This document shows positions 61,880-63,284 of a stretch of 64,000 bases of DNA, one piece after another. The notes beneath the pieces are model-generated. The model worked only from the letters and a program-made list of their open reading frames with translations, did no database searches and was not told the DNA's origin. Within the stretch, counting starts at the first letter, position 1. Each line of letters begins with the position of its first letter. The DNA lies in the NCBI RefSeq assembly GCF_016026235.1, contig NZ_CP065613.1, one strand, 5' to 3'. Position numbers and translations under genes: made by a program. The stretch comes from Escherichia coli (GTDB lineage Bacteria > Pseudomonadota > Gammaproteobacteria > Enterobacterales > Enterobacteriaceae).

Positions 61880-63284
61880 TCAGGAAGGAAATGCGAGTGA
61901 TTTCACCGTCACCGGCACAACCGATCCGCCAAAAAGAGGCGTACCAATGTCGATATAGTCCCCCGCGCGGACAATCACTTCGTCAATGACTGCCAACGGG
62001 AGTTGTTGTAGCTGTGGGCGCAACAGCATGCCCAGAGCTTTACCAAAGTCCTGCCCGGCCACCACCAGCAGGGGATGCGGATTCGGAAAACGCGCGACGA
62101 AATCGACCAGCGCGTTGATGACCGTCAGTACCGCGGCGTAACGCACAGGCAGCGAGGCGGGAAGCGCCAGCACGTACGCGTCAGTTTTGGGATCAAGATC
62201 CAGCTGAATCAGCGCCTGTTGCCAGGCACCCACCAGATCCGTTTCATCAATCGGGATCGCCACCGGCAAATTGCGCAGCGGCAGTTGTACGCCCTCCAGC
62301 CAGATTGTGCTGCCAGAGAGCGAAAGGGTATGTGCACCCGCGCCAATCACCGTGGCGCGTACGGTTTGCGCCGGAAACTGCACGTTCATCTCACGCAGGC
62401 GCGGATGGTCATGCAGCGCCGTTGCCAGAAGCGGACCAATATCGGCAAAACAGAACGGGTCGGCGGGCTGGTGGCGATAACATTCGCCCACGCCGCCAGA
62501 AAGCGTAATGATTTCGGGCGTAACACCTGCGGGCAGCAAACCGGTTTGCATTAATGCCTGCGCGAGCGGCGAAAGCGTTCCGTCAATCACTTCGACAATC
62601 AGCTCTGCCATCCGCCGGGTAACCTGCACCAGCTGCGCGCCGGTCAGCGAACGGACGTCAGTGCCTGCACCGAAGCACTCATCCACAATCATCTGCCCCG
62701 GTTTATGAGCGTAAACCACGCGCCCCTGGCTGTCGGTTTCCAGCAGGCGACCACCGACGTTGAGGCAGGCAGTGCCGCTTATTTTTCCGGCATCGAACAG
62801 ATGCGTAGTTCGCGGTGCCACCGCCGATGTCGATATTCAGTACCCGACACAGCCGTTGTTCAGAAAGGGTTTGCGCCCCGGCACCGTGACCGGCGATCAC
62901 GGATTCGAGGTGCGGCCCGGCGCTGGCGACGACAAAATCGCCCAGCGACTGAGAGAGCGCCATCACCGCCGGGCGAGCATTGCGGGTTTTCGCGCTTTCA
63001 CCGGTGATGATGATGGCACCAGAATCAACACTTTCCGGCGCAATGCCCGCAGCCTGATATTGCTCTAAAATCAGCGATTTCAGTTCCGCTTCTTTTAAAC
63101 CACCCTGTTTATCGACAGGGGTAAAGAACACCGGGCTTTGCCAGCTAATTTCGCGTTTGATGAATTCGTAGCGCGGCACCTGCGACACCGCCGCACGGTT
63201 AACCAGTTCCAGGTGGGAGAAAATCACCTGGGTGGTGGTGGTGCCGATATCGATACCGACGCTCAGTAGCTGGCGAGTGTTCAC
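61880..63284 (-). pseudogene. eutA: ethanolamine ammonia-lyase reactivase EutA, split by a +1 frameshift near 62800
   Basis: EutA-like sequence continues across two ORFs in different frames (62703-63284 and 61880-62821); the first runs into junk after ...IDIGGGTANYA and the second picks up ...LFDAGKISGTACLNVGG. Confidence 0.7.

Follow-up and report, generated by a model that had tools for sequence, protein, structure and literature searches.

In the 64,000-nucleotide stretch of Escherichia coli DNA analyzed here (contig NZ_CP065613.1, called the window below), eutA is interrupted by what we consider to be a genuine, vertically inherited +1 frameshift, an A inserted in codon 161, which has inactivated the reading frame in a small E. 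coli clade closely related to FDAARGOS_943, leaving a pseudogene. We place the probability of this reading at roughly 0.87. The pseudogene occupies positions 61880 to 63284 on the minus strand, and its 1405 nt correspond to a 1404-nt gene plus one inserted base. The original prediction had described EutA-like sequence running over two overlapping open reading frames (ORFs) in different frames, and this was confirmed, with the ORFs at 62703 to 63284 and 61880 to 62821 matching positions 1 to 164 and 161 to 467, respectively, of the NCBIfam model NF007991.

The best match to the eutA region was FDAARGOS_943 (NZ_CP065615.1), which was used as the alignment reference. Global alignment of the window eutA with the intact eutA of this genome revealed exactly one difference in 1405 nt. 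On the coding strand, TACGC-TCTGTTC in FDAARGOS_943 became TACGCATCTGTTC in the window, and codon 161 changed from GCT to GC[A]T. The inserted base is at position 62802 on the minus strand (A on the coding strand, T on the plus strand); it is flanked by C and T and lies outside any homopolymer or short repeat. An extra base had been proposed at about 62800 to 62810, splitting ...TANYA from LFDAGK..., and the alignment to FDAARGOS_943 placed it within that interval. The proposed region and effect on the frame therefore stood, but the identity of the base did not: it is an A on the coding strand and not the T that follows, because Ala161 is encoded by GCT or GCC where eutA is intact. The join that had been assumed for the intact protein, ...GGGTANYA|LFDAGK..., was indeed that of intact EutA in FDAARGOS_943, O157:H7, and K-12. 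When the base at 62802 was removed, the gene encoded a 467-aa protein identical to WP_001097463.1.

Translation of the window eutA begins at a GTG start codon (63284 to 63282, minus strand) that overlaps the eutH stop codon by 4 nt. It proceeds through 161 native residues and 32 out-of-frame residues (SVRCRKNK...GLRS) to a TAA at 62705 to 62703, leaving residues 162 to 467, approximately 65% of EutA, no longer joined to the N terminus. The native TGA stop codon is at 61882 to 61880 on the same strand. The frame is broken relative to close intact orthologues, and the flanks are near-identical, as expected for a frameshift pseudogene. When the 1405-nt region was compared by megablast with 5,426 complete RefSeq E. 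coli genomes, eutA was matched in 5,411 and measured 1404 nt in every match listed. The median copy number of eutA in E. coli is one, and our view of the genome carrying the pseudogene is limited to the 64 kb of the window.

The N-terminal fragment is encoded by the ORF from 62703 to 63284 (minus strand, 193 aa, GTG start), and its exact product is STM06514.1. The native C-terminal frame, codons 162 to 467 plus the stop codon, extends from 61880 to 62800 on the minus strand, in the +1 frame relative to the start. A mechanical call of the second ORF from the GTG at 62821 gave 313 aa (61880 to 62821, minus strand), overlapping the N-terminal ORF, and the C-terminal piece as called by gene callers starts at the GTG at 62719 and has 279 aa, identical to STM06515.1. 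Against NF007991, an EutA equivalog model with a curated cutoff of 799 bits, the N-terminal fragment scored 321 bits over model positions 1 to 164 of 467 and the C-terminal fragment scored 732 bits over positions 161 to 467, compared with 1072 bits over positions 1 to 467 for the intact EutA of FDAARGOS_943. Neither fragment was thus a single polypeptide of approximately 467 aa scoring above the cutoff; combined, the two make up exactly one EutA on the model. Intact EutA also matched Pfam family PF06277 over residues 5 to 465.

The frame is broken four residues past a DIGGGT motif (residues 152 to 157). A weak alignment relates this motif to the phosphate-2 motif, which binds nucleotide, of EutJ, MreB, and FtsA, all actin-like ATPases; from this weak similarity and general knowledge of the fold, we take it to be the phosphate-2 motif of EutA as an actin-like ATPase. 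Searching the PDB by sequence turned up no structure of EutA, only marginal EutJ and MreB matches around DIGGGT (E values of ~0.6 to 0.8). Because these matches are only marginal, the placement of the break within the EutA fold is tentative.

The remainder of the operon was consistent with the original prediction, which had described eutB, eutC, eutK, eutL, and eutR as intact. All five genes are on the minus strand, are full length, and have zero internal stops: eutB (60507 to 61868, 453 aa), encoding the ethanolamine ammonia-lyase large subunit with a protein sequence identical to that of K-12 and FDAARGOS_943; eutC (59599 to 60486, 295 aa); eutL (58930 to 59589, 219 aa); eutK (58417 to 58917, 166 aa); and eutR (57319 to 58371, 350 aa). 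Compared with FDAARGOS_943, the five proteins differ at a single position, EutR residue 170, which is Ser in the window, as in K-12. The gene order eutH-eutA-eutB-eutC-eutL-eutK-eutR is that of FDAARGOS_943 and, prophage aside, of K-12, as expected for the EUT1 position. The window holds the C-terminal part of eutH (63281 to 64000, minus strand), which runs past the window end, and the genes upstream of eutH were therefore read from the draft contig of GCA_001907545.1, which is 100% identical to the window over an 11.3-kb overlap. On this contig, eutS, eutP, eutQ, eutT, eutD, eutM, eutN, eutE, eutJ, eutG, and eutH were present at canonical lengths (111, 159, 233, 267, 338, 97, 95, 467, 278, 395, and 408 aa, respectively).

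The eutA and eutB genes had also been reported as only 11 bp apart with no prophage between them. The spacer is at 61869 to 61879 (minus strand), and its 11 nt contain no DNA of a CPZ-55-type prophage. The statement that K-12 does carry a prophage at this place was correct as well: in K-12 MG1655, the cryptic prophage CPZ-55, annotated at 6,790 nt, lies between eutB and eutA, and two reports agree on its location at the eutA/eutB junction (PMC11334477, PMC7617246).

To establish how widely the insertion occurs, both complete genomes and a public assembly collection were considered; in the carriers, the evidence for the insertion is at the level of assemblies. In the collection, 21 contigs encode exactly the 193-aa product of the frameshifted gene. 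The insertion was present in at least six independent samples, namely, GCA_001907545.1, four Logan read sets, and the record containing STM06514.1 and STM06515.1, which share a 4.56-Mb contig. The same string that marks the insertion in the window was found in GCA_001907545.1, an NCBI draft, and in the Logan assemblies SRR13627083, SRR13627094, SRR11606891, and ERR9828666. A 61-nt query centered on the insertion was then compared with the complete RefSeq E. coli genomes, of which 4,442 of the 5,426 were comparable; the other 984 were too divergent for so short a megablast query. The insertion was absent from all 4,442 comparable genomes, none of which gave a perfect match, and this absence applies to those 4,442 and not to the whole set. 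Eight complete genomes had the identical 60-nt context without the inserted base. Literature searches by assembly and run accessions found no description of the allele or of the lineage carrying it, and eutA goes unmentioned in a bioRxiv paper on how Eut microcompartments are formed. An engineered or planted mutation was considered and ruled out, the insertion being present in independent public assemblies.

The carriers fell into three haplotypes over 11.3 kb, with nested single-nucleotide polymorphisms (SNPs). GCA_001907545.1 and ERR9828666 were identical to the window over this length. SRR11606891 had the FDAARGOS_943 allele at 55572 only, together with a private synonymous change in eutK at 58465, and SRR13627083 retained the FDAARGOS_943 alleles at 63945, 57129, and 55572. 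Since carriers with FDAARGOS_943 alleles at these sites have the insertion, it is older than the SNPs of the sub-lineage. The nesting of the SNPs among the carriers is what clonal descent would give, and the insertion is therefore inherited within a small clade. The lesion is thus reproducible in independent sequence data and inherited, being found in at least six samples and three haplotypes. The suggestion that the region be resequenced has in effect been answered, the base being kept in independent assemblies from different sequencing projects.

Over the ~60 kb that could be aligned, the window and FDAARGOS_943 were approximately 99.96% identical, with ~26 SNPs, several differences in insertion sequences (IS), one IS-flanked inversion, and two single-base indels. 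The second of these indels adds a single A to an A9 run at 13167, between fryB and glk, the kind of site at which slippage or sequencing error is typical. Two inverted copies of ISEc60 (IS4-like) were present at 11143 to 12333 (minus strand) and 19137 to 20327 (plus strand), and both have an A715T change, relative to the FDAARGOS_943 copies, that turns codon 239 of the transposase (396 aa) into a stop. The segment of ~6.7 kb between them, glk to nupC according to the FDAARGOS_943 annotation, has the opposite orientation in FDAARGOS_943. At 27144 to 27910, next to xapR, the window has an IS1 element with InsA and InsB ORFs that FDAARGOS_943 lacks at the corresponding site. An IS4 element at approximately 39416 to 40841 (transposase ORF, 39429 to 40775) lies between crr and an intact pdxK of 283 aa; in FDAARGOS_943, clustered ISEc60, ISSso6, and IS66 elements interrupt pdxK.

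Several amino acid changes were also observed. EutH V188E (63945) is a radical substitution in a permease and is derived in the sub-lineage of the window; it arose after the eutA frameshift, because SRR13627083 still has Val. The three SNPs specific to this sub-lineage are all nonsynonymous (eutH V188E, hemF R239H, and amiA T11I), a pattern that relaxed selection could explain, as could divergence that is simply very recent. FDAARGOS_943 has private nonsynonymous changes in EutH (I314F) and EutR (S170L), and the window agrees with K-12 at both.

If the extra base at 62802 were an error of sequencing or assembly, it would be absent from the real genome. The accession style of the STM records resembles, as judged from the style itself, that of long-read reference-collection assemblies, which can retain single-base indels, and the sole other 1-nt indel relative to FDAARGOS_943 sits in the A9 run, where slippage or error is a classic occurrence. 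The eutA site, however, is not homopolymeric, and a separate draft at NCBI shows the same insertion, as do the Logan assemblies of four read sets from different accession series. The carriers are separated by nested SNPs and are therefore different isolates and not copies of one strain, and the eight complete genomes noted above have the same 60-nt context minus the base. Nor is the window assembly riddled with indel errors, since it shows only two 1-nt indels relative to FDAARGOS_943 over ~60 kb. An artifact is therefore essentially excluded. A real frameshift could still leave EutA function in place through programmed +1 ribosomal frameshifting, transcriptional slippage, or reassembly of two separately translated fragments, which we regard as very improbable. 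Termination and reinitiation are conceivable, in that the last 17 nt of the first ORF overlap the frame that opens with the GTG at 62719 and an AGGGG lies just upstream of this GTG, and both pieces of eutA are called by gene callers. Against this, a fragment starting at that GTG would lack residues 162 to 188 altogether, and the break lies four residues after DIGGGT, inside the presumed ATPase core (a placement based on weak similarity and general knowledge of the fold). Inspection by eye of the mRNA around the insertion (AAC UAC GCA UCU GUU CGA) found none of the slippery codon, stop or rare codon, and Shine-Dalgarno-like stimulator of a shift-prone +1 site; of the usual +1 signals, GCA-UCU-GUU offers no repeat on which the tRNA could re-pair, no in-frame stop, and no hungry codon, and no run of eight or more A or T residues for transcriptional slippage occurs there. 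The split is also absent from the 4,442 comparable complete genomes and is therefore not a conserved recoding arrangement.

The frameshift might also be inactivating but selected rather than a product of neutral drift, with ethanolamine catabolism turned down and EutR sensing and the shell genes kept. Disruptions at or beside eutA have arisen independently in O157:H7 (the Q186* allele), in the fragment STI47876.1, and in K-12 (CPZ-55), and the frameshift has persisted through at least three further SNPs in 11.3 kb. Neutral decay, however, also predicts that a catabolic gene that is dispensable will be lost repeatedly; few carriers were found (~20 contigs), and the IS-rich lineage suggests that selection is generally relaxed. 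We therefore think it unlikely that the frameshift was selected and have equally little confidence in the broader proposal that selection has repeatedly favored inactivation of eutA in E. coli, as exemplified by the frameshift clade, Q186*, at least one more frameshift, and the K-12 prophage. If that proposal were true, loss of the reactivase would be a simple off-switch for ethanolamine catabolism that keeps EutR-based sensing and the microcompartment genes. Natural null alleles of eutA in E. coli are already documented (PMC10758439), and the inherited frameshift in the window is an ordinary, lineage-specific gene loss.

Next, we considered what the inherited frameshift would mean for growth on ethanolamine. 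Turnover inactivates EutBC, and the removal of the damaged cofactor by EutA requires ATP (PMC5821096). Salmonella EutBC without EutA does not support growth on ethanolamine as the sole nitrogen source (PMC9426561). The EutBC of Acinetobacter baumannii functions without EutA, and dependence on EutA is therefore a trait of the enterobacterial enzyme and not of the enzyme class. A biochemical assay for the ATP- and Mg-dependent exchange of damaged cobalamin on EutBC was reportedly described by Mori et al. in 2004. The frameshift allele would yield no functional EutA reactivase, so that EutBC inactivated in turnover, or holding damaged or nonadenosylated cobalamin, would not be recycled by ATP-dependent cofactor exchange. 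From this analysis, the carriers would likely show poor or no growth on ethanolamine plus B12 despite their otherwise intact eut genes, this prediction being carried over from Salmonella genetics and E. coli biochemistry.

The frameshift may also affect the downstream genes. If the ~820 nt of mRNA that separate the premature stop from eutB are left untranslated or are translated poorly, polarity may further reduce the expression of eutBCLK. A scan of 61500 to 63400, which includes the interval from the frameshift to eutB, revealed no promoter-like site, and terminator-like matches were at chance level. Reinitiation at the GTG at 62719 could lessen the polarity, with a product that would still miss residues 162 to 188.

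The eut operon of the carriers otherwise appears complete, yet they are predicted to be ethanolamine-negative or -poor, which is relevant to metabolic modeling, and typing schemes based on gene presence would score eut as present in them. The lesion is likewise relevant to studies of gut colonization or of microcompartments that use carrier strains, and the insertion offers a clean single-base marker for the clade. Beyond this lineage, it is routine recent gene decay that alone raises no new biological question.

Compared with intact EutA (NF007991, PF06277; WP_001097463.1), the window gene has the same DNA bar one base, the same position between eutH and eutB, and the same 4-nt overlap with eutH; it differs in that the frame is broken after residue 161 and no polypeptide reaches the family cutoff. 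A close parallel among the known losses is an amber allele of eutA (Q186*, C556T) linked to tir 255A in E. coli O157:H7 (PMC10758439). Like the window allele, it is a natural, inactivating point mutation that is inherited within a lineage and leaves the rest of the eut operon intact, truncating the protein at residue 185 compared with residue 161 in the window. It is the sole difference from the intact O157:H7 eutA; in the CP051816.1 locus examined, which carries the amber allele, it lies at positions 2056 to 2058. The Q186* allele is a nonsense substitution, whereas the window allele is an insertion, and it lies in a different phylogenetic background, its eutA being 98.9% identical to that of the window. 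It is also far more widespread, occurring in 64 complete RefSeq genomes compared with 0 for the window allele, and was found in 2,980 blocks of the assembly collection. A further fragment, STI47876.1, is an EutA N-terminal piece of 197 aa with a tail that is out of frame after approximately residue 188, present on 15 contigs, one of them 4.9 Mb; from its sequence, it appears to be a third independent eutA allele, again a frameshift.

The disruption in K-12 is of a different kind. In MG1655 and BW25113, CPZ-55 disrupts eut function at eutA/eutB with the coding sequences intact (PMC11334477, PMC7617246). It is a 6.8-kb insertion that parts eutBCLKR from the operon promoter and leaves eutA intact, whereas in the window the lesion is inside eutA itself. 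The junction between eutA and eutB in the window is the ancestral 11-nt spacer, in contrast to the K-12 junction, which holds CPZ-55.
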